From NCBI GenBank assembly GCA_965214545.1, contig OZ243950.1:132813-196812 (forward strand): 64,000 nt of DNA. The letters run 5' to 3'. The notes under the pieces are model-generated. The model saw nothing but the letters and a program-made list of their open reading frames with translations. It did not search any database and was not told where the DNA came from. Made by a program: the position numbers and the translations under genes. Positions 4,457-59,571 of this stretch are shown piece by piece. This DNA is from an uncultured candidatus Porisulfidus sp. Its GTDB lineage: Bacteria > Pseudomonadota > Gammaproteobacteria > Poriferisulfidales > Poriferisulfidaceae. The stretch's first letter is position 1. The number at the start of each line of letters is the position of its first letter.

Positions 4457-7264
<2,808 letters not shown>

Positions 7265-36957: not shown

Positions 36958-36973
36958 CGTGCGGGTTCCTTTG

Positions 36974-38080
36974 TTATTTGTGACGGGCGCGGGTGTAATG
37001 CCGGGCCGCCATCATCATACCGAATGCAGCCAGGGTGCTGATCATGGCGCTTCCCCCGTAGCTCAGCAAGGGCAGTGGCGATCCGGTCACGGGGGCGTAG
37101 CCGATGGTCATCGCGATATTGATCAGGACATGCAGGAGCAGGGACAGGCCGAGCCCGCCGACCAGCAGTTGGCTGAACCGATCCGGCCCGGCCCGGCTCA
37201 GGGCCACGACCCGCCACAGGATCCCCAGGTACAGCAGGATCAGCCCGGCGACCCCGATCAGGCCGAACTCTTCGGCGTAGACAGAGAAGATGAAGTCGGT
37301 GGAATGTTCCGGCAGGAAGTCGAACTGGGCCTGGGTGCTTTGGGTCCAGCCTTTTCCGGAAATGCCGCCGGAGCCAACCGCGATCTTGGATTGGATCACG
37401 TTGTAGCCGCTGCCGAGCGGGTCGGCCTCCGGGTTGAAGAAGATTCGGATTCGATCTTTTTGGTATTCGCGCAGCGCGTACTGCCACACGAATGGCAGGC
37501 TGATCCCCGCCAGTGTCCCCATGCCGAAAATCCACCGCCGCGAAATCCCGGCCAGCAGGATGACCGAGATCCCAATTGCGGACACCAGCAGCGCCGTGCC
37601 CAGGTCCGGCTGGATGGCGACCAGCCAAGTCGCCAGCGCCACCAGCCCCAAAGCCAGGATGACGCGGAGGGGAGACAGGGGAGGCAGGGAAGAGCCCAGG
37701 AGGTAGGCCACCATCATGGGGGTGGTGAGTTTGAGCAGTTCGGAAGGCTGGAGGGCGATCGGGCCGTACGCCAGCCAGCGCTGGGCAGTGCTGCCGCTGC
37801 CGTAGAACACGACCGCCAGCAACAGGAACAGGTTGAACAGGAACAAGGCCGGAGCCCATCGTCTGAGTCGCTGCGGGGTCACGTGCGCCATGGTCAGCAG
37901 CGCAAGCAGGCCGATGCCAATGCGGATGGCATGTTGCTGGGTGGCGTGAGGGCTCATGTCGTTGGCACTGTATTGAATCGCCAGGCTGAGCGCCAGGACC
38001 GCCAGCAGCAATCCCATCAGGGTTCGATCCAGCGGTTCCAGCAGTTTGGACAGGGCCGGAGTGTAGAAGTGCTGTGCCAT
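36974..38080 (-). CDS. mrdB: Rod-shape peptidoglycan glycosyltransferase RodA
   Basis: 368 aa, a 10-TM SEDS-family protein. It lies downstream of PBP2 (mrdA). Confidence 0.92.
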   Translation of the reverse strand: MAQHFYTPALSKLLEPLDRTLMGLLLAVLALSLAIQYSANDMSPHATQQHAIRIGIGLLALLTMAHVTPQRLRRWAPALFLFNLFLLLAVVFYGSGSTAQRWLAYGPIALQPSELLKLTTPMMVAYLLGSSLPPLSPLRVILALGLVALATWLVAIQPDLGTALLVSAIGISVILLAGISRRWIFGMGTLAGISLPFVWQYALREYQKDRIRIFFNPEADPLGSGYNVIQSKIAVGSGGISGKGWTQSTQAQFDFLPEHSTDFIFSVYAEEFGLIGVAGLILLYLGILWRVVALSRAGPDRFSQLLVGGLGLSLLLHVLINIAMTIGYAPVTGSPLPLLSYGGSAMISTLAAFGMMMAARHYTRARHK

Positions 38081-39916: not shown

Positions 39917-41265
39917 GGTCGGGGAAGCAGAATGAATTGGCTGTGCGTCCCGCGCTGGACCTGGAGGAGCACTTGGGCGGAATCCCGGTCGAGGGTGGCG
40001 CGGATATCTTCGACGCTATTCACGGGACGGCGGTTGATGGAACGCAGCCGGTCTCCGGCCCGGATCCCGGCCTGTGCGGCAGGATAACCCGGTTCGACCT
40101 TAATGATCTCGATGAATGCCGTCCCGGCCTCCCGCCGGGTCGACAGGGTCAGGCCAGCCAGCGCCCGGTGCAGGTTGGCGCCCTGGATGCGCAGGGTCGC
40201 AGTCGCCGCGCGGACGGTCACGGCCTCGCGGCCGCGGAGCAGTTCGATCTCCACTTCGTGCCCGGCGCGCAGCAAGCCCAGCACATTGCGCATGTCCTTG
40301 ACGTCACGGATCTCTTCTCCGTCAATGCGCACCAGGATGTCCCCCGGGACGATGCCGGCCTGGTCGGCCGGAGACTCGTCCACCACTTCGGTGATGACGA
40401 CGCCCTCGGTCTGTTTGAGGCCGAAGGCTTCCGCCAGTTCCGGCGTCATGGCCTGGGCCTGTACCCCGAGCTGACCACGTTGCACCTGGCCGAACTCGGT
40501 TAGCTGGTCGGTGACCTGGAGTACCATGTGGATGGGGATGGCAAAACCGATTCCGATGTTCCCGCCGGAGCGACTCATGATCGCGGTGTTGATGCCGACC
40601 AGTTCGCCGCGCAGGTTGACCAAGGCGCCGCCGGAATTTCCGGGGTTAATGGAGGCATCGGTCTGGATGAAATCCTCGTAGCCGTAGTTGTCGAATACGC
40701 CGCTGCGGCCGAGTGCGCTGACGATCCCGGAAGTGACGGTCTGACCCAGGCCGAAGGGGTTGCCGATCGCCACGACGAAATCTCCGACCCGGAGCTGCTC
40801 GGAGTCGCTGAATGACAGGCTGGTCAGGCCGTCGGCCTCGATGCGCAGCATGGCCACGTCCGTCTCGCTATCCGAGCCGATCACCTCGGCCTTGATCTCG
40901 CGCCCGTCGCTCAGGGCCACCGTGATGTTATCCGCCCGGGCGATCAGGTGATGGTTGGTGACGACGTAGCCTTTTTCCGCGTCTAGGATTACGCCGGTGC
41001 CGAGCCCTCGCCGCACCCGCTTGCGGGTGGGGTGGCCGGGCAGGCCGAAAAAATGCTGGAAAAAGGGGTCCCGGAACAACGGTCCCGTGCGGACCACCTC
41101 TTCGTGGGCAGTGGAAATATTGACGACCGCCGGCACGGTTTTCTCCAGCATCGGCGCCAGCGAAGGCAAGGAGTCCTGGCCGTTTCCCCAAGGGAAGGCC
41201 GCCCAGGCGGGCAGGGCGAGGAGGGCGGCCAGCAATGCGGGCGCGATGCGGGGCAGGGCAGGCAT
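39913..41265 (-). CDS. degQ: DegQ/DegP-family periplasmic serine endoprotease (trypsin domain plus 2 PDZ domains)
   Basis: The start at MPALPRIAPALLAALLALPAWA is a signal peptide. The catalytic triad (H in TNHHL, D in DVAML, GNSGG) and two PDZ domains are present. Its stop overlaps the mrdA start as ATGA. The 58-aa upstream extension in the ORF track is not used. Confidence 0.85.
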   Translation of the reverse strand: MPALPRIAPALLAALLALPAWAAFPWGNGQDSLPSLAPMLEKTVPAVVNISTAHEEVVRTGPLFRDPFFQHFFGLPGHPTRKRVRRGLGTGVILDAEKGYVVTNHHLIARADNITVALSDGREIKAEVIGSDSETDVAMLRIEADGLTSLSFSDSEQLRVGDFVVAIGNPFGLGQTVTSGIVSALGRSGVFDNYGYEDFIQTDASINPGNSGGALVNLRGELVGINTAIMSRSGGNIGIGFAIPIHMVLQVTDQLTEFGQVQRGQLGVQAQAMTPELAEAFGLKQTEGVVITEVVDESPADQAGIVPGDILVRIDGEEIRDVKDMRNVLGLLRAGHEVEIELLRGREAVTVRAATATLRIQGANLHRALAGLTLSTRREAGTAFIEIIKVEPGYPAAQAGIRAGDRLRSINRRPVNSVEDIRATLDRDSAQVLLQVQRGTHSQFILLPRP

Positions 41266-41616
41266 AATCCCGGGAAGTATACCCGGTTCAGGTACTGGCC
41301 GGTGTGCGCTCGGTGGGGTTTTCACGGAATTGTGTGGATAGGCGGTCTGGGAGAAAGGTCCAATCCGCCGAGGCGGAAATAGATGGCCTCGCGGATGCGC
41401 TCGAAGCTGCGGCAACCGCAGGCTTGCCGCTTGACCCACTGGAGCCCTGTCCTCATCATAGAATGAGCCTGAAGGGGAGCGTGTACGGCCCCCTCACAGT
41501 CATGTCAAATCCCCTAAGAAAGCCATTGACTTCCCGTTTCGGCGCTGTTACTATTCGGCACATGATGTGATGGTCTGTCTAGGCCCTTTTCCGATAATAT
41601 AAAAGGGGTAACCGCC

Positions 41617-45590: not shown

Positions 45591-46613
45591 TCAATGGCTG
45601 CGCTTTTCCCCCGGCTTCTCGGAGTGGCCATAGCATTTGCGGCATTTCTTGGGTTTGGGGTCGCTTTCGGACACGACACCATCCTCGTTCGTGTCGTGGC
45701 GCGAAAATTTCTTCTGTCCTGAAGCCAGGTATTCCCCGAAACTGATTTCTCCATTCTCGTCTGTGTCCATCGTCCCGAAGCGCGCCTTCGACCGCTTCAG
45801 TTTTTTCTCCCGGGCCTTCTCGATTGCCTTATCCAGGCGATGGCCGAATTCCAGTGCGTACTCTTCCGGGCTTAGCGTCTCGTCGCCGTTCTCGTCTGTC
45901 CGGTCAAAGTCGGCGCGGCGCCGGGCGCTGAATTCCTCGTGTGTGATCGCGCCGTCTCCATCGGTATCGTACTTCCGCATCATCCCTTTTTTGCTGTGGG
46001 TGCTGGGCATGTGGAGGACCCGCTTTGCGTGTTTTTCGCACATGCCTTTGTGTTTGCCGTGCTTGTGCCGCTTGTGGTCGTGGCCGGACTTGTGGTCGTG
46101 GTCGTGGCCGCTCTTCCCCTTGCCGGGGTAGCCCTTACATCCCTTTTTGCAATGTCGTTTGGGGCGCGGGTCTTCTGCATTGATGATGCCATTTTCGTCC
46201 CCATCAAAGCGCTGGAAGCTGCGCTCGCCGGATGCCTTGTACTCCGCCCACTCGATCTGTTCGTTGCCGTCTTCGTCCAAGGTGTCAAAGCGGCGGTGGG
46301 ACTGCCGGGTGTGCCGCTTGCGTTCCTTTTTGATTTTCTTGTCCAGGCGGTCGGCGCGCGCCTGCATGCGCTCGTCGACGTCGACTGAGCCATTACCGTT
46401 TTTGTCAATCAGGTCGTAACGGGACCGACGGGCCTGCTCGAATTCCTCCGCGGTCACTTGGGCATCGCCGTTTTGGTCGTACCGCTGAATGAAGGACCCC
46501 ATTCCATGGTGCCCCCCGCGGTGTCCTTTCTCGTGTTCTCCAGAGTGTCCTGCAAACGCGAGGCCTGCAGCGGTCGTCAACATGATCGCCGACGCTAAAA
46601 ATCGTGATTTCAT
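45591..46613 (-). CDS. Periplasmic EF-hand repeat protein with a His-rich metal-binding core
   Basis: Signal peptide, then at least 8 EF-hand-like loops (DQNGDAQVTAEEF, DKNGNGSVDVDE, DEDGNEQIEWAEY, DGDENGIINAED, DTDGDGAITHEEF, DENGDETLSPEEY, DTDENGEISFGEY, DTNEDGVVSESD). In the middle sits a His/Lys-rich block (KSGHDHDHKSGHDHKRHKHGKHKGMCEKH). Confidence 0.7.
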   Translation of the reverse strand: MKSRFLASAIMLTTAAGLAFAGHSGEHEKGHRGGHHGMGSFIQRYDQNGDAQVTAEEFEQARRSRYDLIDKNGNGSVDVDERMQARADRLDKKIKKERKRHTRQSHRRFDTLDEDGNEQIEWAEYKASGERSFQRFDGDENGIINAEDPRPKRHCKKGCKGYPGKGKSGHDHDHKSGHDHKRHKHGKHKGMCEKHAKRVLHMPSTHSKKGMMRKYDTDGDGAITHEEFSARRRADFDRTDENGDETLSPEEYALEFGHRLDKAIEKAREKKLKRSKARFGTMDTDENGEISFGEYLASGQKKFSRHDTNEDGVVSESDPKPKKCRKCYGHSEKPGEKRSH

Positions 46614-46853: not shown

Positions 46854-46929
46854 GCGGGAATAGCTCAGTTGGTAGAGCGTAACCTTGCCAAGGTTAAGGT
46901 CGCCGGTTCGAACCCGGTTTCCCGCTCCA
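46854..46929 (+). tRNA. glyW: tRNA-Gly (GCC)
   Basis: GCGGGAATAGCTCAGTTGGTAGAGCGTAACCTTGCCAAGGTTAAGGTCGCCGGTTCGAACCCGGTTTCCCGCTCCA gives a cloverleaf with anticodon GCC. Confidence 0.9.
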
Positions 46930-46971
46930 GTTCCCATTGCGATCCGATCGCCGGGTCAGAGTATAAGCAGG

Positions 46972-47045
46972 GGCTGAGTGGCAGAGTGGTTATGCAGCGG
47001 CCTGCAAAGCCGTGGACGCCGGTTCGATTCCGACCTCAGCCTCCA
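46972..47045 (+). tRNA. cysT: tRNA-Cys (GCA)
   Basis: GGCTGAGTGGCAGAGTGGTTATGCAGCGGCCTGCAAAGCCGTGGACGCCGGTTCGATTCCGACCTCAGCCTCCA. The acceptor pairs GGCTGAG/CTCAGCC and the anticodon loop is CT-GCA-AA. Confidence 0.88.
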
Positions 47046-47460: not shown

Positions 47461-49026
47461 ATGACCCACCGCAAGCTTCCCATTGGAATCCAGGACTTCC
47501 GGGCGATCCGGGAGCGGGGCTATTACTACGTGGACAAGACCCTTCTCATCCGGGATCTGGTGGAGGGAGGCGAGCACTATTTCCTGTCCCGACCGCGCCG
47601 GTTCGGCAAGAGCCTGCTGGTGAGCACGCTCGAAGCCCTGTTCGAGGGTCAGGAGGAGCTGTTCCAGGGGCTGGCTATCCACGGCCACTGGGACTGGTCG
47701 GTGCGCCATCCGGTGGTGCATCTGAGCTTTGGTGCGGGATATACGAAGCCGGGGGACCTTGAGGGGGATATCCTCACGCAACTGGCGGGAATCGAGGAAG
47801 ATGCCGGTCTTTCTCCGGCAACCCAGATACAGGATGGGCCGAACCGGTTGAAGAACCTGTTGTATCGCCTGCATCGTGGGACCGGCCAGCAGGTCGTGGT
47901 GCTGGTGGACGAATACGATAAGCCGGTCCTGGATGTGTTGAAGGACACGGCGTTGTTGGAGGCGAACCGGGACTACCTGTGGGGGCTCTACGGTATCATC
48001 AAGGGCAGCGCCGAACATGTGCGTTTCGTGTTCGTGACCGGGGTGAGCATGCTCTCGAGGGCGAGCCTGTTCTCGGGGCTCAACAACCTGAGGGACATCA
48101 GCCTGGACCCACGGTACGCCACGGTCTGCGGGTACACCGATGCCGATCTGGACACGGTATTCGCCCCGGAACTGGAGGGCTTGGACCGGGATCAGATACG
48201 CGCCTGGTACAACGGTTATCATTGGCTGGGTGAGGAGAAAGTCTATAACCCGTGGGACATCCTTCTGTTGTTTGACAGCCGGAAATTCGAGCCCTACTGG
48301 TATGAGACCGGTTCGCCGAGCTTCCTGTTCCGGTTGATGATGGAGAAGGAAATGAGCCCGATGGAACTGGAGAACCGGATGGCCGACGAGAGAATGATCT
48401 CGAACTTCGATGTGGAGGACATCGGGGTGGAGGCCTTGCTGTTCCAGACCGGCTATCTGACGATTACCGCCGAGGAGACGACTGGGGTCAGGACCTTTTA
48501 CACGCTGGACTATCCGAACCAGGAAGTGCGACAGAACTTGAACGACGGGCTGTTGGAGCACTTGGGACAACGGGGGGAGGACGTGGTGGCCTGGGGCCGG
48601 CAGTTATGCGGCCGCCTGGAGTCGGGGGATTTCGAGGGATTTGGAGACGAGCTGAAAAGTTTTTATGCGGGGGTGCCGTACCAGTGGCACACGAGCGGGG
48701 AGTTGGCGCGGTACGAGGCTTGGTACGGAGGCCTGCTGTATGCGTGTTTCCGGTCGAACCGAGTGGACCTGCGGGTGGAGGATGCCTCCAGCCGGGGCCG
48801 GGCGGACATGGTGGTGTTCCGCGGGGGGCAGGTGTTCGTGCTGGAGTTCAAGATGGCAGCGGAGGGCGAAGACGGGGAGGCGGCGCTGGATGCGGCTCTG
48901 GTGCAGATGCGCGAGCGGGGCTATGCGGAGAAGTACCGCGACCGTGGCGAGCCGATTCATTTGGTCGGGATAGCGTTCGGACGGGAGGAGCGCAACCTGC
49001 TGGGAGTGCGAGCGGAATTGGCCTGA
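47461..49026 (+). CDS. AAA-ATPase-like / PD-(D/E)XK nuclease family protein (PF09820 plus PF08011 architecture)
   Basis: 521 aa. The N-terminus MTHRKLPIGIQDFRAIRERGYYYVDKTLLIRDL...FLSRPRRFGKSLLVSTLEALFEG is the hallmark of the 'AAA-ATPase-like' domain. The C-terminus (GEL.RYE.WY...D.R.E.......RADMVVF...VFVLEFK) has a D...E.K-like PD-(D/E)XK nuclease pattern. It lies immediately 3' of the tRNA cluster. Confidence 0.65.
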   Translation: MTHRKLPIGIQDFRAIRERGYYYVDKTLLIRDLVEGGEHYFLSRPRRFGKSLLVSTLEALFEGQEELFQGLAIHGHWDWSVRHPVVHLSFGAGYTKPGDLEGDILTQLAGIEEDAGLSPATQIQDGPNRLKNLLYRLHRGTGQQVVVLVDEYDKPVLDVLKDTALLEANRDYLWGLYGIIKGSAEHVRFVFVTGVSMLSRASLFSGLNNLRDISLDPRYATVCGYTDADLDTVFAPELEGLDRDQIRAWYNGYHWLGEEKVYNPWDILLLFDSRKFEPYWYETGSPSFLFRLMMEKEMSPMELENRMADERMISNFDVEDIGVEALLFQTGYLTITAEETTGVRTFYTLDYPNQEVRQNLNDGLLEHLGQRGEDVVAWGRQLCGRLESGDFEGFGDELKSFYAGVPYQWHTSGELARYEAWYGGLLYACFRSNRVDLRVEDASSRGRADMVVFRGGQVFVLEFKMAAEGEDGEAALDAALVQMRERGYAEKYRDRGEPIHLVGIAFGREERNLLGVRAELA

Positions 49027-49071: not shown

Positions 49072-50028
49072 GTGTTCGACAATTCCATCGCTAACGCCAT
49101 GAAAAACAATATTTTTATAAGACGCCCAAACTTCATGATCGTGCAGGCGGGCGTGATCCTGCTCCTGTTTGGCGCCTTGCTGTACTGGCAGAGGGCGACC
49201 CTGGAGGAGATCTACCTGGGCCCCTTGGCGACGCAGCTCGGCCTGGTCGTCAATGGCATCATCGGGGCGTTGTTCCTGGTGGCGCTGGCCCGGATCTTCT
49301 ACCTGTTGTTCGCCTATGCCCGCGAGAGCCGCGCCATCGACCTGTTCGAGGAACAGGTGGACTTCGGTTTGACTGACGCCGGCATTGAAACCCTGTCCGA
49401 ATCCCTGGTCGTGCAGCGCTACCGCGTCCTGCAGCAGGGCCGGTCGGAACTGGACCGCCCCCAGCAGGCGGCCCTGTCGGCCATTCTGCTGAACCAGGAA
49501 ATGACGCGCCTCGGCCTGATCCGCCTGATCCAGGGCCTGCTGATCCTGCTCGGCGTGTTTGGCACAGTGGCCTCGTTGTCCCTGGCCCTGGTCGGGGCGT
49601 CCGACCTGCTGTCCTTCCCGCAGGACGGCGGCGGCATCACCCAAGTGGTGCACGGGATGGCGACCGCGCTGTCCACCACGATGACCGCTATTGCGGCCTA
49701 CTTGGTCTTGACGCTCATCTTCTCGCGGCTGGTGGCCAGCCAGTCCAGCGTGTGCCAGAGGATCGAGTGGCTGACCCTGCGCCGCCTGCTGCCGCTGGTG
49801 TCGCGCGAAGGCGCCAACCTGGGCCACACCCTGGCGCTGCGGCTGAAAGACCTCAACGAAGTGGCCTTGGCCCTGGCGGAAGTCCAGGACCGCCTGACCC
49901 CGAATCTTGAAGCCCTGCGTCGCGAGCAGCACATGCAGGACGAACACAACAAGAACGTGATGGACGCGTTGCACGGCATCGACCAGACCCTGAAGAAGGG
50001 GTTTCGGCTGGACCCGCCCGGACCATGA
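49072..50028 (+). CDS. MotA/TolQ/ExbB-family proton-channel subunit (4-TM stator-like protein)
   Basis: 318 aa with a TM1-TM2, about 90-aa cytoplasmic loop, TM3-TM4, about 100-aa tail topology. The region LLGVFGTVASLSLAL...GMATALSTTMTAIAAYLVLTLIF resembles the MotA/ExbB signature (LLGTVxGM...AxALxTTxxGL). An AT-richer 5' end leaves the exact start uncertain. Confidence 0.6.
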   Translation: MFDNSIANAMKNNIFIRRPNFMIVQAGVILLLFGALLYWQRATLEEIYLGPLATQLGLVVNGIIGALFLVALARIFYLLFAYARESRAIDLFEEQVDFGLTDAGIETLSESLVVQRYRVLQQGRSELDRPQQAALSAILLNQEMTRLGLIRLIQGLLILLGVFGTVASLSLALVGASDLLSFPQDGGGITQVVHGMATALSTTMTAIAAYLVLTLIFSRLVASQSSVCQRIEWLTLRRLLPLVSREGANLGHTLALRLKDLNEVALALAEVQDRLTPNLEALRREQHMQDEHNKNVMDALHGIDQTLKKGFRLDPPGP

Positions 50029-50924
50029 TCGACAGTCTCTCCGTGATCCCCGGCGCCCCCGCCCACCTGTCCCCGATCAACGAGGAGAACTTCTGGCCAT
50101 CCTTCACCGACATCATGATGGTTGTGGTCATCGTGTTCCTGCTGTCCAGCACGGTCGCCGTGCTGCATAACTGGGACCTGTCCCGGCAGGTCCAGGAAAC
50201 GGCCGCGCTTGAACAACAGGCCCGAGAGCAGGCGGAAGACCTGAACCTGCGCCGTCTGCTGCTCCAGATCGAATTGGAAGAGATGCAGGGCCGCATGGCG
50301 AAAACCCGCGAGGCGCTGGCGGCCAAGACCGGCCAGTTGCAACAGCGGGAGGAAGACCTGACCGGCGCGCAGGGCGCGCTGGCCGAACAACAGAGACAAC
50401 TGATGGACATGCAGGAGGAGTATGCGCGCGTGCAGGCAGAGATGAGGGCGAACCAGGACATGAGCGCGGAGCGCGAGCAAGAACTGCTCGACGTACAACG
50501 GCAGTTGGAGAAGATGCAGACCGAGAGCATCCTGCGCGAGCAGATGTACGTTGAAGTCGAGCAGCAGCAGCGGCAGACCCGGGAGGAGCTGCAGCTCCTG
50601 CAGAAGGAATACGAGGAGATGGGCGAGAAGTACGCGGCGCTGTCCAAGCCGGCCCGCAGCCCGCTCGGCAAGACGGTGGCCGCCGTCCGCTACCGGAAGG
50701 TGGACGGGCAGCCGTCCTTCATGCTCAAGCGCCCGGACGCCCCGCAGTTCGAGCCCATCGGCGAGGCGGACCTGCATCGGGCCCTGTCGCAACTGAAGGC
50801 GGAGCATGGGGACAAACTGTTCGTCCGCATCGTGATCCCGATGGACAGCAAGCTGAGCTACCAGGAAGGCTGGCAGTTCTCGCTGGACTTGCTGAGGCGT
50901 TACGACTACTACTACGCGGAATGA
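50025..50924 (+). CDS. MotB/TolR/ExbD-family N-terminal TM with conserved Asp, fused to a long coiled coil; no OmpA/PG-binding domain recognisable
   Basis: 299 aa. The N-terminal segment EENFWPSFTDIMMVVVIVFLL matches the MotB (W.IAYADFMTAMMAFFL) / TolR (PFIDVMLVLLIIF) channel-plug/TM motif, including the protonatable Asp. Residues about 55-200 are heptad-rich (EQQAREQAEDLNLRRLLLQIELEEMQGRMAKTREALAAK...), giving a predicted long coiled coil. The about 90-aa C-terminal domain has no known family. ATGA overlap with the upstream MotA-like gene. Confidence 0.55.
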   Translation: MIDSLSVIPGAPAHLSPINEENFWPSFTDIMMVVVIVFLLSSTVAVLHNWDLSRQVQETAALEQQAREQAEDLNLRRLLLQIELEEMQGRMAKTREALAAKTGQLQQREEDLTGAQGALAEQQRQLMDMQEEYARVQAEMRANQDMSAEREQELLDVQRQLEKMQTESILREQMYVEVEQQQRQTREELQLLQKEYEEMGEKYAALSKPARSPLGKTVAAVRYRKVDGQPSFMLKRPDAPQFEPIGEADLHRALSQLKAEHGDKLFVRIVIPMDSKLSYQEGWQFSLDLLRRYDYYYAE

Positions 50925-51042: not shown

Positions 51043-51969
51043 ATGCCCGGGTCCGTTGTAATCGAAAACCTGGTCAAGACCTACGGCGACCTGCATGCCG
51101 TGGATGACTTGAGTTTTGAGGTCCAGCCTGGCGAGGTTCTGGGCTTTCTCGGGCCGAACGGTGCCGGGAAGTCCACGACCATGAAGATTGTCACCGGCTT
51201 CCTGCCGCCGACCTCGGGCCATGTGACGGTGTGCGGGCACCCGGTCGAGACGCAGCCGCAGGCCGCCAAGAAATGCCTGGGCTACCTGCCGGAGGGGGCA
51301 CCGGCATACAGCGAGATGACGCCGTGGCAGTTTCTGAATTTCGTAGCCGATATTCGCCGGCCCGAAAACCGCCGCGCGCGGCTGGACTGGGTTATTGGGC
51401 AGCTGGGCCTGGAGCCCGTGTTGCATCGCCCGGTCGACACCCTGTCGAAAGGTTACCGCCGCCGGGTCGGCTTGGCGCAGGCCATGCTGCACGACCCGCG
51501 CGTGTTGATCATGGACGAGCCGACCGACGGGCTGGACCCCAACCAGAAGCGGCAGGTGCGCGATTTCATCAATGAAATGGCGCAGGACAAGACCATCATC
51601 ATCTCGACGCACATCCTCGAAGAGGTCGAGGCCATCTGCACGCGGGCCATCATCATTTCCGCCGGCAAGATCCTGGCCGACGAAACCCCCGAGGCATTGC
51701 GCCAGCGGTCCCGGTACTGCAATGCCGTCACGATCCAGGCCGACCTGGAGGAACCGGTGCGCGCCGCGCTCGGTGAACTCGAAGACGTCGCGCTGGTGGA
51801 GCCGGAACGCAATCGGGGCCTGACTCTGATTCCCCGAGCCGGCCGCACGCTGGAAGGCGCCGTCCGAGACGTCCTGTTGCGCCACAATCTGAAGGAAGTC
51901 CCGCTGCACATCCAGGCCGGGCGGCTGGACGACGTGTTCCACACCCTGACCCACAACGCCCATGAATAA
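51043..51969 (+). CDS. ABC transporter ATP-binding protein (GldA-like, ABC-2 type)
   Basis: 308 aa with Walker A GPNGAGKST, an LSKGYRRRVGLAQA signature and Walker B LIMDEPTDGLD. Confidence 0.85.
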   Translation: MPGSVVIENLVKTYGDLHAVDDLSFEVQPGEVLGFLGPNGAGKSTTMKIVTGFLPPTSGHVTVCGHPVETQPQAAKKCLGYLPEGAPAYSEMTPWQFLNFVADIRRPENRRARLDWVIGQLGLEPVLHRPVDTLSKGYRRRVGLAQAMLHDPRVLIMDEPTDGLDPNQKRQVRDFINEMAQDKTIIISTHILEEVEAICTRAIIISAGKILADETPEALRQRSRYCNAVTIQADLEEPVRAALGELEDVALVEPERNRGLTLIPRAGRTLEGAVRDVLLRHNLKEVPLHIQAGRLDDVFHTLTHNAHE

Positions 51970-52696
51970 CCTGATCGCGATCCTGAGGCGGGAGCTGGTC
52001 GGCTATTTCCAGACGCCGGTGGCCTACGTCTTCATCATGATCTTCCTGCTGTTGTCCGGGACGCTGAGTTTCTACCTGGGGAACTTCTACGAGCGCGAGC
52101 AGGCGGACCTGGGCGCATTCTTCACGTTCCACCCTTGGCTGTACCTGTTCCTGGTCCCGGCCATCTCCATGCGCCTGTGGGCGGAGGAGCGAAAGACCGG
52201 CAGCATCGAGTTGCTGATGACGCTCCCGGTGACGGTGCCGCAGGCGGTGCTCGGGAAGTTCCTGGCGGCCTGGATATTCACCGGCATCGCATTGTTCCTG
52301 ACGTTCCCGATCTGGCTTACGGTCAACTACCTGGGCGACCCGGACAACGGCATCATCCTGGGCGCCTACCTGGGCAGTTTCCTGATGGCCGGCGGCTTCA
52401 TGGCTATCGGCGCCTGCATTTCCGCGACCACGCGCAACCAGGTCGTGGCCTTCATCCTCAGCCTGGTGACCTGTTTCCTGTTCCTGCTGAGCGGCTTCCC
52501 GCTGGTCCTGGACTTCTTTCAGCTATGGCTCCCGCAACCGGTGGTCGACACCATCGCGTCGCTGAGTTTCCTGACTCACTTCTCCTCGATCAACAAGGGC
52601 GTGATCGACCTGCGGGACCTGGCTTATTTCGTGATCCTGATCTCGGTCTGGCTGTACGCCAACATGATCGTGGTCCGGACCCGCAAGGCCGCATGA
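51962..52696 (+). CDS. ABC-2 family permease (GldF-like)
   Basis: 244 aa with 6 predicted TM helices, an ABC-2 type permease. Overlaps the ATPase stop. Confidence 0.75.
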   Translation: MNNLIAILRRELVGYFQTPVAYVFIMIFLLLSGTLSFYLGNFYEREQADLGAFFTFHPWLYLFLVPAISMRLWAEERKTGSIELLMTLPVTVPQAVLGKFLAAWIFTGIALFLTFPIWLTVNYLGDPDNGIILGAYLGSFLMAGGFMAIGACISATTRNQVVAFILSLVTCFLFLLSGFPLVLDFFQLWLPQPVVDTIASLSFLTHFSSINKGVIDLRDLAYFVILISVWLYANMIVVRTRKAA

Positions 52697-54576
52697 ACGG
52701 TTCCAACCGGAAGACCTACACGGCGGCCGGGCTGGGCCTGCTGGCCGTGCTGTTCGTCTCCTCCATCATGCTCAGCAACCTGACCTTGGGCAACCTGCGG
52801 CTGGACCTGACCGAGCAGAAGCTCTACACCATGAGCGAGGGCACCCTGAAGGTTGTCGACAGCATCCAGCAGCCGATCAACCTGTATCTGTTCTTCTCGG
52901 ACCGGGCCAGCGCGGAGAACGCCCCTTTGCGCAACTACGCCCGCCGGGTCCGGGAACTGCTGGAAGAGTACACGCACCACGCGGACGGCCGGGTGATCTT
53001 GCAGGTCATCGACCCGGCCCCGTACTCGGAAGAGGAAGACCGGGCCACGGAATTCAACCTGCAATCGTTTCCGGGGCAAGGCGGCGACAACCTGTACTTC
53101 GGCCTGGTCGGCACGAACGTGGTCGGCGACGTCGAGGTCATCAAGTTCTTCCAACCGGACCGTGAGGCATTTCTGGAATACGACATCAGCCAGCTGATCT
53201 ATGCCCTGACGAATCCGGCGAAGCCGGTGGTGGGAGTCCTCACCGGCCTGCAGATGTTCGGCGGGTTTGATCTGGCCAACCAGCGCGCGACCCCCCAGTG
53301 GGCCATCCTCGACCAGATCGAACAGCTGTTCGAGACCCGGCAGGTCGACATCGAGTCCGGGGTGATCGACCCGGACATCCGGATCCTGATGCTGGTCCAC
53401 CCGAAGGGGCTGTCCGAGAAGATGCTGTATGCGGTGGACCAGTTTCTGATGCGCGGCGGCCGCTTGATGCTGTTCGTCGATCCCTACGCGGACAAGGACC
53501 CTATGTTCCAGAATGCCAGCAACCCTCCGGAGTCGGGGGGTATCCAGGCCTCCGAGATCGACCGGCTGCTGGATGGGTGGGGGCTGGACATCGACATGGA
53601 CGCGATCGTGGCCGACCGGGCCCTGGCCCTGCCGGTGCAACGCCCCAATGCCCCGCGGCCGATTCGCCACCTCTCGTTCATCGGGATCGCCGAGGACGGG
53701 ATCAACCGGGACAACCTGATTTCCGCCCAGCTGTCCCGGGTGACGTTCGGGTTCGCGGGCCGGATCAGGAAGACCGAGGCGTTCCAGGGTGAATTCGAGC
53801 CGCTCCTGCGCACGTCGGAAGATTCCGGCGAGATCCCGAAGCCGCGCTACCGGCATCTTCCCGACCCGACCGCCTTGCTGGAATGGTTCGACCCGGGCGG
53901 GCGTCCCTTGACGCTGGCGGCCTGGGTGCGGCTGCGCCCGGGCAGCCTGTTCCCGGAGGGCCCGCCGGCGGATGCGACGGCGCCGGCGGAAGGCCATCTG
54001 GCCGAAGCACGGGAGAGGGTCGATGCGATCGTGGTCGCGGATGTCGACATGCTGTCAGACACCCTGTGGGCGCGGGTACAGAACTTTTTCGGGCAGCGGA
54101 TCGTGCAAGCCTGGGCCAGCAACGGCGATTTCGTGGTCAACGCGTTGGAAAGCCTGGCCGGCAGCGGCGACCTGATCGGCTTGCGGGGCCGGTCCGAATT
54201 TGCGCGGCCCTTCCACGTGGTCGAACAACTGCGGCGGCAGGCGGAGCAACGCTTCCATGCCAAGGAGGAGGAGCTCCAGCGGCGCCTGGAAGAGGCGGAA
54301 CAGAGCATCAGCCGGATCCAGCAGTTGCGGCAGGAAGGGGAGCAGAGCTTGTTGACGGAGCAGCAGCGCGCGGAAATCGAGGCCTTCCAGCAGGAACGGT
54401 TGCGGGTGCGCCGTGAATTGCGCTCGGTCCGTCATGAACTGGACCGGGATATCGAACACCTGGGCTTCGTCTTGCGCCTGATTAACATCTGGCTGGTTCC
54501 AGTCCTGGTCACCCTGGCCGCCATCGGCCTGTGGCTGTTCCAGCGCCGCCGCCGCTCCCAGAGGGCGCAGGCATGA
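52693..54576 (+). CDS. GldG-like ABC transporter auxiliary component (COG3225 family)
   Basis: The start MNGSNRKTYTAAGLGLLAVLFVSS (ATGA overlap with the permease stop) gives about 627 aa. It has an N-terminal TM, a large periplasmic domain and a C-terminal TM (LINIWLVPVLVTLAAIGLWLF). The 813-aa ORF in the track is a frame artefact running through the permease gene. Confidence 0.65.
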   Translation: MNGSNRKTYTAAGLGLLAVLFVSSIMLSNLTLGNLRLDLTEQKLYTMSEGTLKVVDSIQQPINLYLFFSDRASAENAPLRNYARRVRELLEEYTHHADGRVILQVIDPAPYSEEEDRATEFNLQSFPGQGGDNLYFGLVGTNVVGDVEVIKFFQPDREAFLEYDISQLIYALTNPAKPVVGVLTGLQMFGGFDLANQRATPQWAILDQIEQLFETRQVDIESGVIDPDIRILMLVHPKGLSEKMLYAVDQFLMRGGRLMLFVDPYADKDPMFQNASNPPESGGIQASEIDRLLDGWGLDIDMDAIVADRALALPVQRPNAPRPIRHLSFIGIAEDGINRDNLISAQLSRVTFGFAGRIRKTEAFQGEFEPLLRTSEDSGEIPKPRYRHLPDPTALLEWFDPGGRPLTLAAWVRLRPGSLFPEGPPADATAPAEGHLAEARERVDAIVVADVDMLSDTLWARVQNFFGQRIVQAWASNGDFVVNALESLAGSGDLIGLRGRSEFARPFHVVEQLRRQAEQRFHAKEEELQRRLEEAEQSISRIQQLRQEGEQSLLTEQQRAEIEAFQQERLRVRRELRSVRHELDRDIEHLGFVLRLINIWLVPVLVTLAAIGLWLFQRRRRSQRAQA

Positions 54577-55601
54577 ATCGCCGCGAGCTGGGCCGGCTGG
54601 CGACCCTGACCGGAGTCGTGCTGCTTGCGACGGCCGTGATGTACAACCTTCGCTCCCAGTCCGGAGACCAGGACTATATCGGGGCCTTGTGGCTTGAAAA
54701 CCTCGACATCAACGCCGTCACCCGCATCGATGTCACCGGGCCGGGAAACATGCCGCAGGTCAGCCTGGAGCGCCGCCCGGAAGGCTGGGGCGTGGTGCAG
54801 CGCCAACATTATCCCGCGAATGTCGGCATCATCCGGAGCCTGTTGTTGGATTTGTCGGAAGCGAAATTCCTGGAGCGCAAGACCGGGGATCCGGGCCAGC
54901 ATGCCCGCTTGGGCCTGGGCCGCATCGAGCAGTTGGAGGCCGTCGGGCAGCAGGTCACGCTGCATACCGCGGAAGGGCCCCGGCCCGTCCGCATCGGCAT
55001 GAACCCGGACGGGCGCAGCGCCACGTATGTGCGGAATGCCGACGACGATCAGGGCTGGCTGGTGGACCGGACTTTCACGATTCCGAACGAACCGCGGCGC
55101 TGGCTCGACCCGGAACTGCTGGATATCGGGATGGAGCGGATCCGCCGGATGGAGGTCGTGCACCCGGACGGGGAAAGGATCGAAGGGCAGCGCGCGGAAC
55201 AGTCCGCGGACGTAAAATTCACCGTGCTCAACCTTCCCGAAGATGCGGTGCTGAAAAGCGAGTACGCGCTCAGCCGCATGGCCAGCGCGATCACCAGCCT
55301 GTCGCTGGAGGACGTGATGCCGGCCGCCCAGGCCGCGGCCTATCTGGAAGACGCGGCCCGGGCCTGGTACGAGATTGACTCGGGCTACCGCCTGGAAGCG
55401 CGCCTGTTCGCCGTGGATGTGGAACGCTACGCGCGCTTTACGGTGCACCTCGGAGAGGACATGAGCGACGAGGACCGTGCCCGGGCGAGCCTGCTGGCCC
55501 GACACCTCGAGGGCTGGGCCTTCCGGATTCCGTCCTTCGCCCACGACAGCATGGCGCTGCGCTGGGCCGATATTTTGGAGGGGGTCGGGGAGCCCGAGTG
55601 A
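54573..55601 (+). CDS. DUF4340-domain protein (fourth gene of the GldAFG-like cassette)
   Basis: The start MNRRELGRLATLTGVVLLATAV (ATGA overlap with the upstream stop) gives an N-terminal TM plus periplasmic repeats. Assignment to DUF4340 is from memory of the common operon architecture. Confidence 0.5.
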   Translation: MNRRELGRLATLTGVVLLATAVMYNLRSQSGDQDYIGALWLENLDINAVTRIDVTGPGNMPQVSLERRPEGWGVVQRQHYPANVGIIRSLLLDLSEAKFLERKTGDPGQHARLGLGRIEQLEAVGQQVTLHTAEGPRPVRIGMNPDGRSATYVRNADDDQGWLVDRTFTIPNEPRRWLDPELLDIGMERIRRMEVVHPDGERIEGQRAEQSADVKFTVLNLPEDAVLKSEYALSRMASAITSLSLEDVMPAAQAAAYLEDAARAWYEIDSGYRLEARLFAVDVERYARFTVHLGEDMSDEDRARASLLARHLEGWAFRIPSFAHDSMALRWADILEGVGEPE

Positions 55602-55602
55602 T

Positions 55603-56598
<996 letters not shown>

Positions 56599-56683
56599 CT
56601 ATAATTCGGACAAACCTTGCATTCCTGTTTTGAAGAAAAAGCCCGCCAAACGCGCGAAACGACCAGATTCGCAACCCCGCCGC

Positions 56684-58933
56684 ATGTCTCCGGTGTTCCG
56701 CGAGGGTGCGCTACTTGTCTTCTCGGCCCTGGCCGTGTACCTGCTGGTCGCACTGATCAGCTTCCACCCGGATGACCCGAGCTGGTTCGATACCGGCGAC
56801 GGGAGCACCCGGAATGCGGCCGGGACGGTGGGCGCGGTCGTGGCCGGCCTGTTGCTGAACTTGTTGGGCTATGTCGCATACCTGGTCCCGTTCATGCTGG
56901 GCTATCACGGCTGGCTGCTCTACAGCCAGCGGCCCGTCCCGGGGACGGCGCAGAAGCCCGGCTGGGCCCTGGCATCGATGCGCTGGGGCGGATTCCTCAT
57001 GACGTTGATTGCGGCCTGTGCCCTGATCGGGATCTACCTGCTGGCCCCGGCCTTGCCGAATGGAAGCGGCGGGCTGATCGGGAAAGGGGTTGCGAGTGGA
57101 TTTGTCATCGCATTCAGCGAAGTGGGCGCAACGGTGCTGTTGCTGGCGATGCTGCTGGTCGGCACCACCCTGTGGACCAGTTTTTCGTGGCTGAAGGTCG
57201 TGGACCTGACCGGAAAGGGGATCTGGGAGGCCGGGGTGGCGATGATCGCGGGAATCCAGTACCTGCGCGAATATGTGTCCGGACGGAAGGATCGCCAGCA
57301 ACGCCAAGAGAAGCGGAAGCGAACCAAGCAGAAGAGGGCGGGCAAGAGCCCTGCCCGGATTGAACCCAGGATCCAGATCGAAACCGATGCCAAGAGGCAG
57401 GCGAAGGAAAAGCAGATTTCCCTGCTGCCCGCGAACGAAACCAAGGAATTGCCGCCGCTCGACCTGTTGGACGAACCCATGGAAGGGAGCCTGGGATATT
57501 CTGAGGAAACTCTCAGCAATATGTCGAAACAGATTGAAATTAAAATGGAAGAATTCAAGGTTGACGTCACGGTGGTGGCCGTGACGGCCGGGCCGGTCGT
57601 GACGCGTTTCGATCTGGAGCCGGCCCCGGGGATCAAGGGCAGCAAAATCAGCAGTTATGCCAAGGATCTGGCGCGTGCATTGTCGGTGGTCAGCGTCCGC
57701 GTGGAGGAGGTGGTCGAAGGGAAGCCGGTGATCGGCCTGGAGGTGCCGAACGAGGATCGCGAGATGGTGATGGCCAGCGAGATCCTGCGCTCGGCCGCGT
57801 TCAACCAATCCCCATCCCTGCTGACGCTGGCGCTCGGCAAGGGCATCGGCGGCGAGCCGGTGGTTTGCGACCTGGCGAGAATGCCGCATCTCCTGGTGGC
57901 CGGGACGACCGGCTCCGGGAAGTCGGTGGCGATCAACGCCATGATTCTGAGCCTGCTGTACAAGGCCCTGCCGCGGGATTTACGGTTGATCCTGATTGAC
58001 CCGAAGATGCTGGAACTCGCCATCTACGAGGGCATCCCGCACCTGCTGACCCCGGTTGTCACCCAGATGGGCAAGGCGGCTCAAGCCCTGCGGTGGTGCG
58101 TGGCCGAGATGGAACGACGCTACACCATCATGTCGAGGTTAGGTGTCCGCAACTTGAACGGCTACAACCGGAAGGTCGAGGAAGCGGAGAAGGACGGGCA
58201 GCCGCTTGCGAATCCGATGTACGAAGGTTTGGGCGAGGAAGAGGAGCCGCCGCTTTTGGAGCACCTGCACTACATCGTGGTGGTCATCGACGAATTTGCG
58301 GACTTGATGATGGTGGCCGGGAAAAAGGTTGAGGAGCACATTATCCGCCTGGCCCAGAAGGCCCGTGCCGCCGGAATCCACCTGATCCTCGCGACGCAGC
58401 GCCCGACACGCGAGGTGATTACCGGCTTGATCAAGTCGAATATTCCTTCCCGGATCTCCTTCCGGGTCGCCTCGCAGATCGACTCGCGCACGATCCTGGA
58501 CCAGGGCGGGGCGGAACAACTGCTGGGGCACGGAGACATGCTGTTCCTGGATTCGGGGGAGACCTTGCCCAAGCGGGTGCATGGCGCCTTCATTTCTGAC
58601 GACGAGGTCCGTCAGGTGACCAAGCACTTGCGCAAGCACGGCGGCGAGCCTGAATACCTGGAGGAAGTCACGGAGAAGGACGGATCTGCCCCGGTGCCGG
58701 GACTGAACGACGAGGACGACGAGGAGGGGGCAGAGGATTCACTGTACCAGACGGCGGTAGAGATTGTGCGCCGCGATCAGAAAGCCTCGATCTCGTACCT
58801 GCAGCGGCGCCTCAAGGTGGGCTACAACCGGGCGGCCCGGATGATCGAGGAAATGGAGGAGGCAGGGATTGTCGGCGCGGTGCAGCCGGGGGGCGCCCGC
58901 GAGGTCCTCGTGTCTTCGCCTGACGAATCCTGA
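56684..58933 (+). CDS. ftsK: DNA translocase FtsK
   Basis: The start is assigned to MSPVFREGALLVF... This gives N-terminal TM helices, a Pro/Gln/Lys linker, a motor domain (Walker A GTTGSGKS, HLILATQRP) and a C-terminal gamma domain (LYQTAVEIVRRDQKASISYLQRRLKVGYNRAARMIEEME). The ORF-track start at 56492 would overlap trxB antisense. A TTG at about 56633 is an alternative. Confidence 0.9.
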   Translation: MSPVFREGALLVFSALAVYLLVALISFHPDDPSWFDTGDGSTRNAAGTVGAVVAGLLLNLLGYVAYLVPFMLGYHGWLLYSQRPVPGTAQKPGWALASMRWGGFLMTLIAACALIGIYLLAPALPNGSGGLIGKGVASGFVIAFSEVGATVLLLAMLLVGTTLWTSFSWLKVVDLTGKGIWEAGVAMIAGIQYLREYVSGRKDRQQRQEKRKRTKQKRAGKSPARIEPRIQIETDAKRQAKEKQISLLPANETKELPPLDLLDEPMEGSLGYSEETLSNMSKQIEIKMEEFKVDVTVVAVTAGPVVTRFDLEPAPGIKGSKISSYAKDLARALSVVSVRVEEVVEGKPVIGLEVPNEDREMVMASEILRSAAFNQSPSLLTLALGKGIGGEPVVCDLARMPHLLVAGTTGSGKSVAINAMILSLLYKALPRDLRLILIDPKMLELAIYEGIPHLLTPVVTQMGKAAQALRWCVAEMERRYTIMSRLGVRNLNGYNRKVEEAEKDGQPLANPMYEGLGEEEEPPLLEHLHYIVVVIDEFADLMMVAGKKVEEHIIRLAQKARAAGIHLILATQRPTREVITGLIKSNIPSRISFRVASQIDSRTILDQGGAEQLLGHGDMLFLDSGETLPKRVHGAFISDDEVRQVTKHLRKHGGEPEYLEEVTEKDGSAPVPGLNDEDDEEGAEDSLYQTAVEIVRRDQKASISYLQRRLKVGYNRAARMIEEMEEAGIVGAVQPGGAREVLVSSPDES

Positions 58934-59571
58934 TGAGGTCTCCGAACGTCCGGTTTCTGGCTTTCGCTACCCTGCTCGGGCTGGCGTCCGCCCCGGATGC
59001 CCCGGCGAGCCCGGAGAGCGAGATTGAGCGATTCTTCGAGCAGACCCAGTCCTTGACGGCATTCTTCCAACAGGAAGTCTGGTCGGTGGACGGGACGCTC
59101 CTGTCTTCCGGGCATGGCGACATGAGTTTGTTGCGACCGAGCTTCATGCGCTGGAACTACCGGGAACCCGAGCCCTTGGTCCTGGTTTCCGATGGCATCG
59201 ATTTCTGGTCCTACGATCCGATCCTCGAACAGGCGACCGTCACAAGGGTGGAAGAGGCCTTGGACGACACGCCGCTTTCGGCCTTGTTGGGTTCGCGGGT
59301 CCTGGAAGACTTGTTCGCGGTCGAACAAACCCGCCACCAAGACGGGATCGACTGGATTGTGCTGCAATCCCGGGCGGGCGCCGCCCGCCCGGTTGAGCTG
59401 TTGATCGGCTTGCGTTCGGGCACGCTGGCGCGCCTGCATTTCGTCGACCAGTTCGGACAGGAAGTTCGGGTTCGGTTCGAACAGGTGCGGGTGAACCCGC
59501 CCCTGCAGCCGGATTTTTTTTCCTACCGGCCGCCACGCGGCACGGACGTTCTGGGTACGCCGAGCCAGTGA
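58933..59571 (+). CDS. lolA: Outer-membrane lipoprotein carrier protein LolA
   Basis: 212 aa with a signal peptide and the LolA fold pattern (FxQ...W...SDG...W.YD). Conserved ftsK-lolA-rarA order. TGATG junction with ftsK. Confidence 0.85.
   Translation: MRSPNVRFLAFATLLGLASAPDAPASPESEIERFFEQTQSLTAFFQQEVWSVDGTLLSSGHGDMSLLRPSFMRWNYREPEPLVLVSDGIDFWSYDPILEQATVTRVEEALDDTPLSALLGSRVLEDLFAVEQTRHQDGIDWIVLQSRAGAARPVELLIGLRSGTLARLHFVDQFGQEVRVRFEQVRVNPPLQPDFFSYRPPRGTDVLGTPSQ

Follow-up and report, generated by a model that had tools for sequence, protein, structure and literature searches.

In a 64,000-nucleotide window (contig OZ243950.1) from Candidatus Porisulfidus, a sponge-associated sulfur bacterium, two adjoining genes, here called A and B, on balance appear to encode a stand-alone motor driven by the proton-motive force. 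The motor would be of the 5:2 type and of the non-flagellar ExbBD/TolQR/ZorAB class, with a periplasm-spanning arm carried on the B subunit. MotAB, ExbBD, TolQR, GldLM and ZorAB form a small set of 5:2 ion-driven motors that carry energy away from the inner membrane into other compartments of the cell. To our knowledge, it is still unsettled how the non-flagellar members turn rotation into useful work. Hundreds of chemolithotrophic bacteria, including Gamma- and Zetaproteobacteria, have conserved the A-B pair. Carriers include metagenome-assembled genomes placed in Mariprofundus, Sedimenticola and Thiolinea. Judged by sequence models, the pair belongs to no characterised system, and a full-text literature search found no description of its architecture. 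More tentatively, it may represent a kind of trans-envelope machine not described before, in which the dimeric axle of a proton-driven 5:2 motor is itself a periplasmic coil of 14-58 nm with TolR-like heads, so that motor and force transducer would form one polypeptide and no TolA or TonB would take part.

The gene pair and its channel subunit

All features described below lie on the + strand. The open reading frame of gene A occupies positions 49072-50028 and encodes 318 aa from a GTG codon. Its homologues are 305-309 aa long and their alignment begins at Met10; the real start is therefore probably the ATG at 49099, which gives a protein of 309 aa. Gene B (50025-50924) encodes 299 aa and combines a transmembrane (TM) helix, a coiled coil and a putative TolR-like head. 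In an ATGA overlap read directly from the sequence (50025-50028), the stop codon of A shares bases with the start codon of B, which implies translational coupling. The same spacing, a gap of -4, is the commonest among the homologous loci (22/86).

Subunit A matches the Pfam family MotA_ExbB (PF01618) over residues 141-231 with 25.5 bits, above the gathering threshold of 22.9 by a thin margin. A profile of the A family compared by HMMER with the sequences of solved MotA, ExbB, TolQ and ZorA proteins gave no match beyond coiled-coil noise, so that membership at the sequence level rests on the Pfam match. Four hydrophobic helices are predicted, and the N-terminus, the loop between TM2 and TM3 and the C-terminus are rich in Lys and Arg, which indicates a topology with four TM helices and the N-terminus inside. 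The Pfam-matched region forms the channel core (49492-49764) and contains columns that are invariant in 48 homologues. These include I158-L-x-G-V-F-G-T165 in TM3 and G195-M-x-x-A-L-S-T-T203 in TM4, which align with the GLFGTV and GIAEALVAT segments of bona fide TolQ. The putative pore-lining threonines, T165 in TM3 and T202 and T203 in TM4, are invariant in the same set. The protein ends in a long cytoplasmic helix (residues ~250-311, positions 49819-50007; H250-311 in the AF2 model), a single tail of ~60 aa closing with the G310-F311-R312 motif, also invariant in the 48 homologues.

Structural comparison gave A the fold of the A subunits of 5:2 motors. ExbB, ZorA (the second-best match) and TolQ were closer than MotA, and PomA was also a weaker match than ExbB and TolQ. 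By its Pfam score, fold and conserved pore threonines, A belongs to the MotA/TolQ/ExbB proton-channel superfamily. The preliminary description of this DNA, which had proposed an orphan, translationally coupled pair with a MotA/TolQ/ExbB-like subunit of four TM helices, thus agrees with the overlap, the Pfam score and the predicted helices. TolQ and ExbB have three TM helices, whereas four are predicted here.

The axle subunit and its extension

The N-terminal part of B contains the predicted trans-pore helix (residues 23-44, FWPSFTDIMMVVVIVFLL..., positions 50091-50156), with the codon of Asp29 at 50109-50111. Within the motif FWPSFTDIMMVVVIVFLL, W24, P25, S26, D29, M31 and F38 are each shared by ≥98% of the 108 homologues compared, and Asp29 by 100% of them. 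An hhalign comparison (E 3.5e-4) placed this residue opposite the Asp in the TM helix of TolR. The Pfam ExbD model (PF02472) covered the TM region only and scored 17.2 bits, below its cutoff of 25.4, and a weak PADLOC match to ZorB was likewise confined to this segment. With a single N-terminal TM helix, a conserved Asp and a gene directly downstream of A, subunit B reads by its sequence as a MotB/ExbD/TolR-type axle.

The helix is followed by a coiled coil (residues ~45-200, positions 50157-50624) whose location would be periplasmic. This region is rich in Glu, Gln, Arg, Leu and Ala, and among 198 family members it contains 0.003 Pro per 100 residues. Hydrophobic residues in the same set recur with a sharp 3.5-residue period (power 2.0 against a background of ~0.15). 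In the protein from the window, the heptad phase hardly shifts between residues ~76 and 200. A hairpin or break of the coil at the TGAQG segment was considered and is unsupported, the phase being the same on both sides. The coil measures ~155 aa in this protein and 95-393 aa across the family, which would correspond to ~23 nm here and 14-58 nm family-wide if it is two-stranded and continuous. Such four-fold variation is hard to square with a rigid ruler across a periplasm of fixed width. Matches of the coil to SMC, JetC and FlbB in NCBIfam and PADLOC were of the generic coiled-coil kind.

A Pfam search detected neither an OmpA domain nor any other domain above its cutoff in B. A cryptic peptidoglycan-binding OmpA domain was rejected, as Pfam and NCBIfam gave no match to one. 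Residues 22-187 of B did align with positions 15-179 of the 350 positions in the NCBIfam PRK09039 models (NF006543/NF006546), scoring 22.5 bits against a cutoff of 305. Since the alignment covers the first half of the model, the two proteins appear to share a design in which a helix is followed by a coiled coil. Unlike that family of 'peptidoglycan-binding proteins', B matches this half only and has no OmpA domain. The PRK09039 family, which we take to be itself uncharacterised, presumably carries an OmpA-type peptidoglycan-binding domain at its end.

These features also bear on the view that the pair is a divergent paralogue of a flagellar or gliding-motility stator, which is very improbable. 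Subunit A is nearer to ExbB, ZorA and TolQ than to MotA. MotAB and PomAB have an OmpA-like peptidoglycan-binding domain on the B subunit and a flagellar context, both of which are absent here. Neither protein matched the NCBIfam MotA or MotB models, and flagellar or gliding genes lay near none of the inspected loci.

The C-terminal globular head (residues 203-299, positions 50631-50921) is a domain of ~95 aa and the best-conserved part of B after the TM helix. Its invariant positions are PAR (209-211), G215, P272, W283 and Y293-D-Y-Y296. The order of its elements, beta-beta-beta-alpha-beta-alpha, suggests a putative TolR-like fold. A comparison of the head with TolR and ExbD by hhalign was colinear and not significant; the TolR alignment consisted of two approximate E. 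coli sequences and Zetaproteobacterial TolRs. A search seeded with the TolR of a Zetaproteobacterial carrier locus, L042, returned only close Mariprofundus TolRs (73-96% identical), which confirmed the L042 frame as a bona fide TolR and did not deepen the profile. The head profile gave only noise against PDB sequences (S100, thioesterase; E >0.3). Foldseek found nothing significant for the head in the PDB, the top matches being RNase-H-like cores with TM-scores of ~0.3. The domain has no Pfam or NCBIfam model, and B is therefore annotated merely as hypothetical.

Three earlier proposals on B can be judged from these data. The MotB/TolR motif with a protonatable Asp is borne out by the invariance of Asp29 across the 108 homologues. 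The coiled coil of roughly 150 residues in place of an OmpA anchor is likewise found, nearly free of proline and with clear 3.5-residue periodicity. The C-terminal domain of roughly 90 aa is real and well conserved, and its designation as unassignable is refined here to a putative TolR-like head.

Proposed machine and its relation to known motors

In the proposed stand-alone motor, five copies of A would form a ring in the membrane, with a pore lined by Thr165 of TM3 and Thr202/203 of TM4. Two copies of B would insert their N-terminal helices, each bearing Asp29, into this pore, and protonation and deprotonation of Asp29 would rotate the A ring relative to the B dimer. The A5B2 stoichiometry and the ion-driven rotation are taken over from homology alone. 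The two B chains would wind around each other as a parallel coiled coil, long and without interruption, and the two TolR-like heads at its end would stand well away from the inner membrane, level with the peptidoglycan layer or beyond it. A motor with its own periplasm-spanning arm would probably not need a third protein of the TolA/TonB type. We infer the periplasmic location of the arm, binding by the heads to peptidoglycan or to an outer-membrane-proximal partner, and a physiological role in which such binding would couple proton flow at the inner membrane to the outer envelope. This role may be one of maintenance or tethering, parallel to that of the canonical Tol-Pal system.

Among known systems, the nearest are the Tol and Ton motors, from which the pair differs in several respects. 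In TolQ-TolR and ExbB-ExbD the helix runs almost directly into the head, while in B a coil of ~155 aa (95-393 in the family) separates them. The pair has no linked TolA/TonB, TolB, Pal or YbgC; the ybgC-tolQ-tolR-tolA-tolB-pal context is absent around it in the window and in 89 loci. A canonical ybgC-tolQ-tolR-tolA cluster is present separately in the L042 carrier. Its true TolR scores 135 against a cutoff of 127, whereas B has no TolR or ExbD match in NCBIfam (TIGR02801 and others). As canonical tolQRA genes also occur in Zetaproteobacterial carriers, the A-B pair constitutes a separate system.

It is nevertheless conceivable, if rather unlikely, that A and B energise a TonB- or TolA-type transducer encoded elsewhere, with the head of B contacting it as ExbD contacts TonB. 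The fold of A, closest to ExbB and TolQ, and the putatively TolR-like head of B would fit such a three-component arrangement. Moreover, tonB genes are often unlinked from their exbBD motors (PMC12204202), and the absence of a neighbouring transducer therefore does not prove that none exists. Against this stands the lack of a conserved TonB- or TolA-like gene beside the pair in 90 loci. The coil of B could by itself span the periplasm and would duplicate what TolA domain II or the TonB linker does. In addition, A and B fail all NCBIfam Ton and Tol equivalog models, whereas the true TolQ and TolR of the carrier genome pass them.

Other motors offer closer parallels to a stand-alone motor with its own arm. 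TPH-vWA proteins paired with TolQ-like genes have been proposed as B-type partners with a transducer domain of their own (PMC12204202). The shared concept is a TolQ-like pentamer around a dimeric inner partner that brings both the trans-pore helix with its Asp and a periplasmic effector or transducer, without a separate TolA or TonB (PMC12204202). In the TPH-vWA motors, however, the effector is a periplasmic vWA domain and the genes often form heterologous pairs, while the pair described here has a single B gene with a predicted homodimeric coil and a putative TolR-like head. The inner dimer of GldM is a long periplasmic shaft of ~18 nm that reaches toward the outer membrane (PMC9389320). GldL-GldM has the same mechanical design as is proposed for the B arm. 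The GldM shaft consists of four globular domains, though, whereas the B arm is a coiled coil with no detectable sequence relationship to it, and neither A nor B matched GldL or GldM in Pfam or NCBIfam. GldLM further belongs to a large conserved gene cluster, and the A-B pair is autonomous.

The extension of the Zorya motor is a tail of ZorA in the cytoplasm, while here it lies on B. ZorB has a peptidoglycan-binding domain and Zorya needs ZorC/D or ZorE; here there is no such domain and no effector genes, and the locus is core. The preliminary description, according to which the pair resembles Zorya and GldLM without matching them, is consistent with the sub-threshold Zorya scores and the absence of Gld matches. 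Its view that no characterised system fits the pair holds for the NCBIfam models of TolQ, TolR, ExbB, ExbD, MotA and MotB, none of which matched A or B.

If the proposed class is real, the single polypeptide combining motor and transducer could, for example, turn as a shaft or pull on the peptidoglycan or on the outer membrane in the manner of a torsional winch. It would then belong to the core functions of the envelope in Proteobacteria that oxidise sulfur and iron, among them sponge symbionts with reduced genomes, and raises the question of an additional envelope function beyond Tol-Pal in chemolithotrophic Gamma- and Zetaproteobacteria. As a minimal two-gene 5:2 motor, with a long, simple, length-variable arm and a small head on the axle and apparently no third component, it would be attractive for structural work on how rotation or anchoring of B is transmitted across the periplasm. 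It would also allow one to ask whether a TolR-type head can function when placed far from the membrane. Annotation in a few hundred species would benefit from a definition of the family.

Genomic setting of the pair

The pairing of the two genes is obligate. An A-family reading frame is present in 90/90 loci carrying B, and 86 of them, by a strict criterion, have it directly upstream in the same orientation; the other four have over-extended starts of the reading frame. The pairing predicted for homologues is thus conserved in essentially all loci. Flagellar, Tol-Pal and TonB genes are absent within ~10 kb of the pair, as had been stated for the surroundings of the window pair.

In the window, tRNA-Gly and tRNA-Cys genes and an AAA-ATPase_like/PDDEXK_9 gene adjoin the pair upstream. 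The order IDH-ICL-tRNAGly-tRNACys-A-B-ABC-DUF4340-trxB is syntenic in 10/10 loci of the Porisulfidus clade, all from small chromosomes of 1.6-2.0 Mb, and the pair is part of the core chromosome of Candidatus Porisulfidus. The AAA/PD-(D/E)XK gene was found in the window genome alone among these ten and is a strain-specific insertion.

A Zorya-type anti-phage motor, or a new defence system in a tRNA-linked island, is accordingly hardly credible. The tRNA pair, the PD-(D/E)XK gene and the position of ZorA as the second-best structural match of A point that way, as do weak PADLOC matches to ZorA (at most 17 bits) and to the N-terminus of ZorB (24 bits). These PADLOC matches are sub-threshold and, apart from generic coiled-coil matches, were all that PADLOC returned. 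No ZorC/D/E-like gene, long ZorA tail or peptidoglycan-binding ZorB domain was found. Plasmid and phage collections gave no matches to the pair, which is retained in the reduced symbiont genomes and whose distant homologues stand among housekeeping genes, for example thiC, glnE, trmE/yidC and secDF. With the clade-wide synteny and the private insertion, these results leave the defence island rejected. Of the neighbourhood as first described, the adjacency is correct, while the accessory or defence character is not supported.

Downstream of B in the window lie GldA-, GldF- and GldG-like genes. They encode parts of an ABC transporter, stay below the Gld cutoffs and do not belong to a GldLM motor. 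It has to be considered whether the Porisulfidus pair energises this ABC-2 transporter together with DUF4340, all forming one envelope-spanning apparatus for export or surface trafficking. The cassette is on the same strand and starts 118 bp downstream of B, and the interval from B to the ABC gene showed no terminator on the + strand. The order A-B-ABC-permease-GldG-like-DUF4340 is found in 10/10 loci of the clade, down to 43-50% identity of B, and is kept even in one locus (L007) with a different upstream flank. This arrangement is unlikely all the same. In the other 80 loci, no GldF-, GldG- or DUF4340-like gene lies closer than 10 kb to the pair, the spacer between B and the ABC gene contains a promoter-like site, and the cassette falls under the NCBIfam GldA/F/G cutoffs. 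The linkage can also be explained by the synteny of the clade, which includes trxB and ftsK.

The stand-alone motor agrees with the wider survey, in which all-against-all clustering of neighbouring reading frames from the 90 loci detected no conserved third gene. The recurrent neighbours were lineage-specific, namely thiC (11 loci), a reading frame of 177 aa (6) and glnE (3).

The A-B pair and its channel subunit

Gene A, encoding a MotA/ExbB-type channel subunit, is a plus-strand ORF at 49072-50028 (318 aa counted from GTG), and gene B, encoding its TolR/MotB-type partner, is an ORF of 299 aa at 50025-50924 (+); the two share the bases ATGA. Since the close homologues of A have 305-309 aa and align from Met10 of the window protein, A probably begins with the ATG at 49099. 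Public annotation names A a "MotA/TolQ/ExbB proton channel family protein" and B a "hypothetical protein".

The preliminary description of both proteins was found to be accurate by ORF and protein analysis, and the pairing it reported is conserved across homologues. An A-family ORF was present in all 90 surveyed sources. By a strict test it lay directly upstream of B, in the same orientation, in 86 of them; the other four fail this test only through over-extended ORF starts. The commonest junction is the same 4-base overlap as in the window. Among the neighbours of the pair in the 90 loci there is no conserved third gene, and what flanks the pair immediately depends on the lineage (thiC in 11 loci, an ORF of 177 aa in 6, glnE in 3).

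Subunit A narrowly passes the Pfam MotA_ExbB model (25.5 bits against a gathering score of 22.9, residues 141-231). It is recognised by no NCBIfam model, and its family profile, built from 48 sequences, did not match solved MotA, ExbB, TolQ or ZorA chains by sequence. Two motifs are invariant, I158-L-x-G-V-F-G-T165 and G195-M-x-x-A-L-S-T-T203. They align with GLFGTV and EALVAT of a bona fide TolQ, and their threonines correspond to the pore-lining positions of the MotA/TolQ/ExbB superfamily. The predicted model has two N-terminal hydrophobic helices, and Lys/Arg residues cluster at both termini and in the TM2-TM3 loop; together these give a predicted N-in topology with four TM helices and a helical cytoplasmic domain. 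The last element of this domain is a helix of 60 residues that carries an invariant G-F-R motif at its C-terminal end.

Membrane helix, coiled coil and head of subunit B

The N-terminal motif FWPSFTDIM of B is nearly invariant, and the membrane aspartate singled out in the preliminary description, Asp29, is kept in 108 of 108 full-length homologues. In profile comparison the helix and its Asp align with TolR (E 3.5e-4). Weak Pfam ExbD and PADLOC ZorB matches are confined to this segment.

The helix is separated from the C-terminal domain by 95-393 residues (median 165; 198 family members), with 0.003 prolines per 100 residues, 1.9% glycine and a sharp hydrophobic periodicity peak at exactly 3.5 residues. 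The window protein keeps one heptad phase from about residue 76 to about 200, the TGAQG segment included. Judged from sequence, this region is an uninterrupted coiled coil, about 23 nm long here and 14-58 nm family-wide, assuming a rise of ~0.148 nm per residue. The coil explains the matches of B to SMC, JetC, FlbB and PRK09039. The shortest coils have ~95 residues and the longest ~390 (~58 nm; P0345, P0357, P0358, P0332 and P0271, B-family proteins of 494-540 aa). The latter length far exceeds any usual periplasmic width, and the four-fold variation argues against a rigid perpendicular ruler.

Residues 203-299 form the best-conserved globular part (Y203, L206, P209-A-R211, G215, P272, W283, Y293-D-Y-Y296). 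The model predicted from a 31-sequence alignment (pLDDT 89.7) is beta-beta-beta-alpha-beta-alpha. With hhalign the domain is colinear with TolR over its whole length, at an E-value of only 0.07; Foldseek against the PDB gave no significant match, and an HMM search of PDB sequences did not corroborate the assignment. A TolR-like head is nevertheless the likely identity, helped by its position C-terminal to a TolR-type helix in a gene adjoining a TolQ/ExbB-type gene. Searching 1.84 billion representative proteins with the head profile returned only 376 clusters, 348 of them below 1e-10. The head invariably sits at the C-terminus, the proteins being 258-540 aa long, and the 150 best matches listed include no ExbD/TolR of ordinary size (140 aa); the family is discrete.

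A candidate motor with a built-in transducer

The ExbB/TolQ fold, the invariant Thr ring, the helix with its invariant Asp, the obligate pairing with translational coupling, the coil and the TolR-like head are compatible with a proton-driven A5B2 motor, which would belong to the non-flagellar branch. The B dimer would run on as a parallel coiled coil holding two TolR-like heads off the inner membrane. The head would attach to peptidoglycan or to a partner near the outer membrane, or act on either. It is homology (cf. PMC9389320) that suggests the stoichiometry, the rotation, the periplasmic location and the head target. The proposed arm is mechanically akin to the GldM shaft (PMC9389320), and the built-in transducer conceptually resembles the TPH-vWA partners proposed for TolQ-like genes (PMC12204202). 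A role in motility is very improbable.

The favoured reading is a motor with a built-in transducer, because no TolA/TonB-like partner is linked to the pair and the coil is long enough to span the periplasm. Service by an unlinked TonB or TolA is unlikely. In the Zetaproteobacterial MAG loci L042 and L067, a canonical ybgC-tolQ-tolR-tolA cluster (L042 2484-4798, minus strand, by NCBIfam) is encoded ~4.6 kb away from the pair, in the opposite orientation. Its TolQ (269 vs 221), TolR (135 vs 127) and YbgC exceed their NCBIfam equivalog cutoffs, and the adjacent A and B homologues have no NCBIfam match at all. Given this coexistence, the pair is an additional system separate from the Tol motor, at least in those genomes. 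Full-text literature searches found no description of the A-B architecture, which is a new architecture within a known class of machine rather than a new class, and is relevant to the 5:2-motor and cell-envelope fields.

Distribution and neighbourhood

The closest genomes are those of Candidatus Porisulfidus, sponge-associated sulfur-oxidising Gammaproteobacteria with chromosomes of 1.6-2.0 Mb. Less closely related members (28-37% identity) are found in Thiotrichales, Ectothiorhodospiraceae, Halothiobacillaceae, Sedimenticolaceae, Thiohalomonadaceae and Zetaproteobacteria/Mariprofundus, and in some Desulfuromonadales and Desulfobacterales. Tblastn over species-representative genomes matched 557 candidate stretches; the 80 loci retained all match via the head of B.

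The ten Porisulfidus-clade loci are syntenic (IDH-ICL-tRNAGly-tRNACys-A-B-GldA-like-GldF-like-GldG-like-DUF4340-trxB), except that L007 lacks the IDH-ICL-tRNA flank. Directly downstream of B, at 51043-55601 (+), lie an ABC ATPase (GldA-like, 299 bits vs cutoff 403), an ABC-2 permease (GldF-like, 173 vs 289), a GldG-like ABC_transp_aux/DUF7088 protein and a DUF4340 protein. Coupling of the pair to this cassette is a shade less likely than an unlinked TonB/TolA partner, since the linkage, found in all loci of the clade, is not kept in other lineages.

The defence-island setting suspected at first was not upheld, and a defence system is the least probable reading of the pair. The synteny is clade-wide, PADLOC gave nothing above noise, and tblastn found no match for A or B in a plasmid collection or for B, the only query, in a phage collection. 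The AAA-ATPase_like (PF09820)/PDDEXK_9 (PF08011) gene (521 aa, 47461-49026, +), just 3' of tRNA-Gly/tRNA-Cys (46854-47045), has no significant PADLOC match. As it occurs in this genome only among the ten otherwise syntenic loci, it is a strain-specific tRNA-site insertion. The same applies to a 340-aa EF-hand gene (45591-46613, -) without counterpart in related loci; its product has His/Lys-rich stretches, several EF-hand calcium-binding motifs and a hydrophobic N-terminus, a putative signal peptide.

The wider window holds housekeeping and many envelope genes, dense at 22466-26221 (+), 34108-41439 (-) and 56492-59571 (+). Among the window ORFs, Pfam identified YhdP, PBP5 and an SLT_2 lytic transglycosylase; PBP2, DegP, FtsK and LolA are probably also encoded, from Pfam matches on the syntenic genes of the related loci L006 and L008. 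This clustering is suggestive. At 7436-8683 (-) a second ATPase gene (AAA_14 + DUF4143), of a type often met as an accessory insertion, adjoins a putative uvrA (4457-7264), so named from its length and the sequence of its N-terminus.
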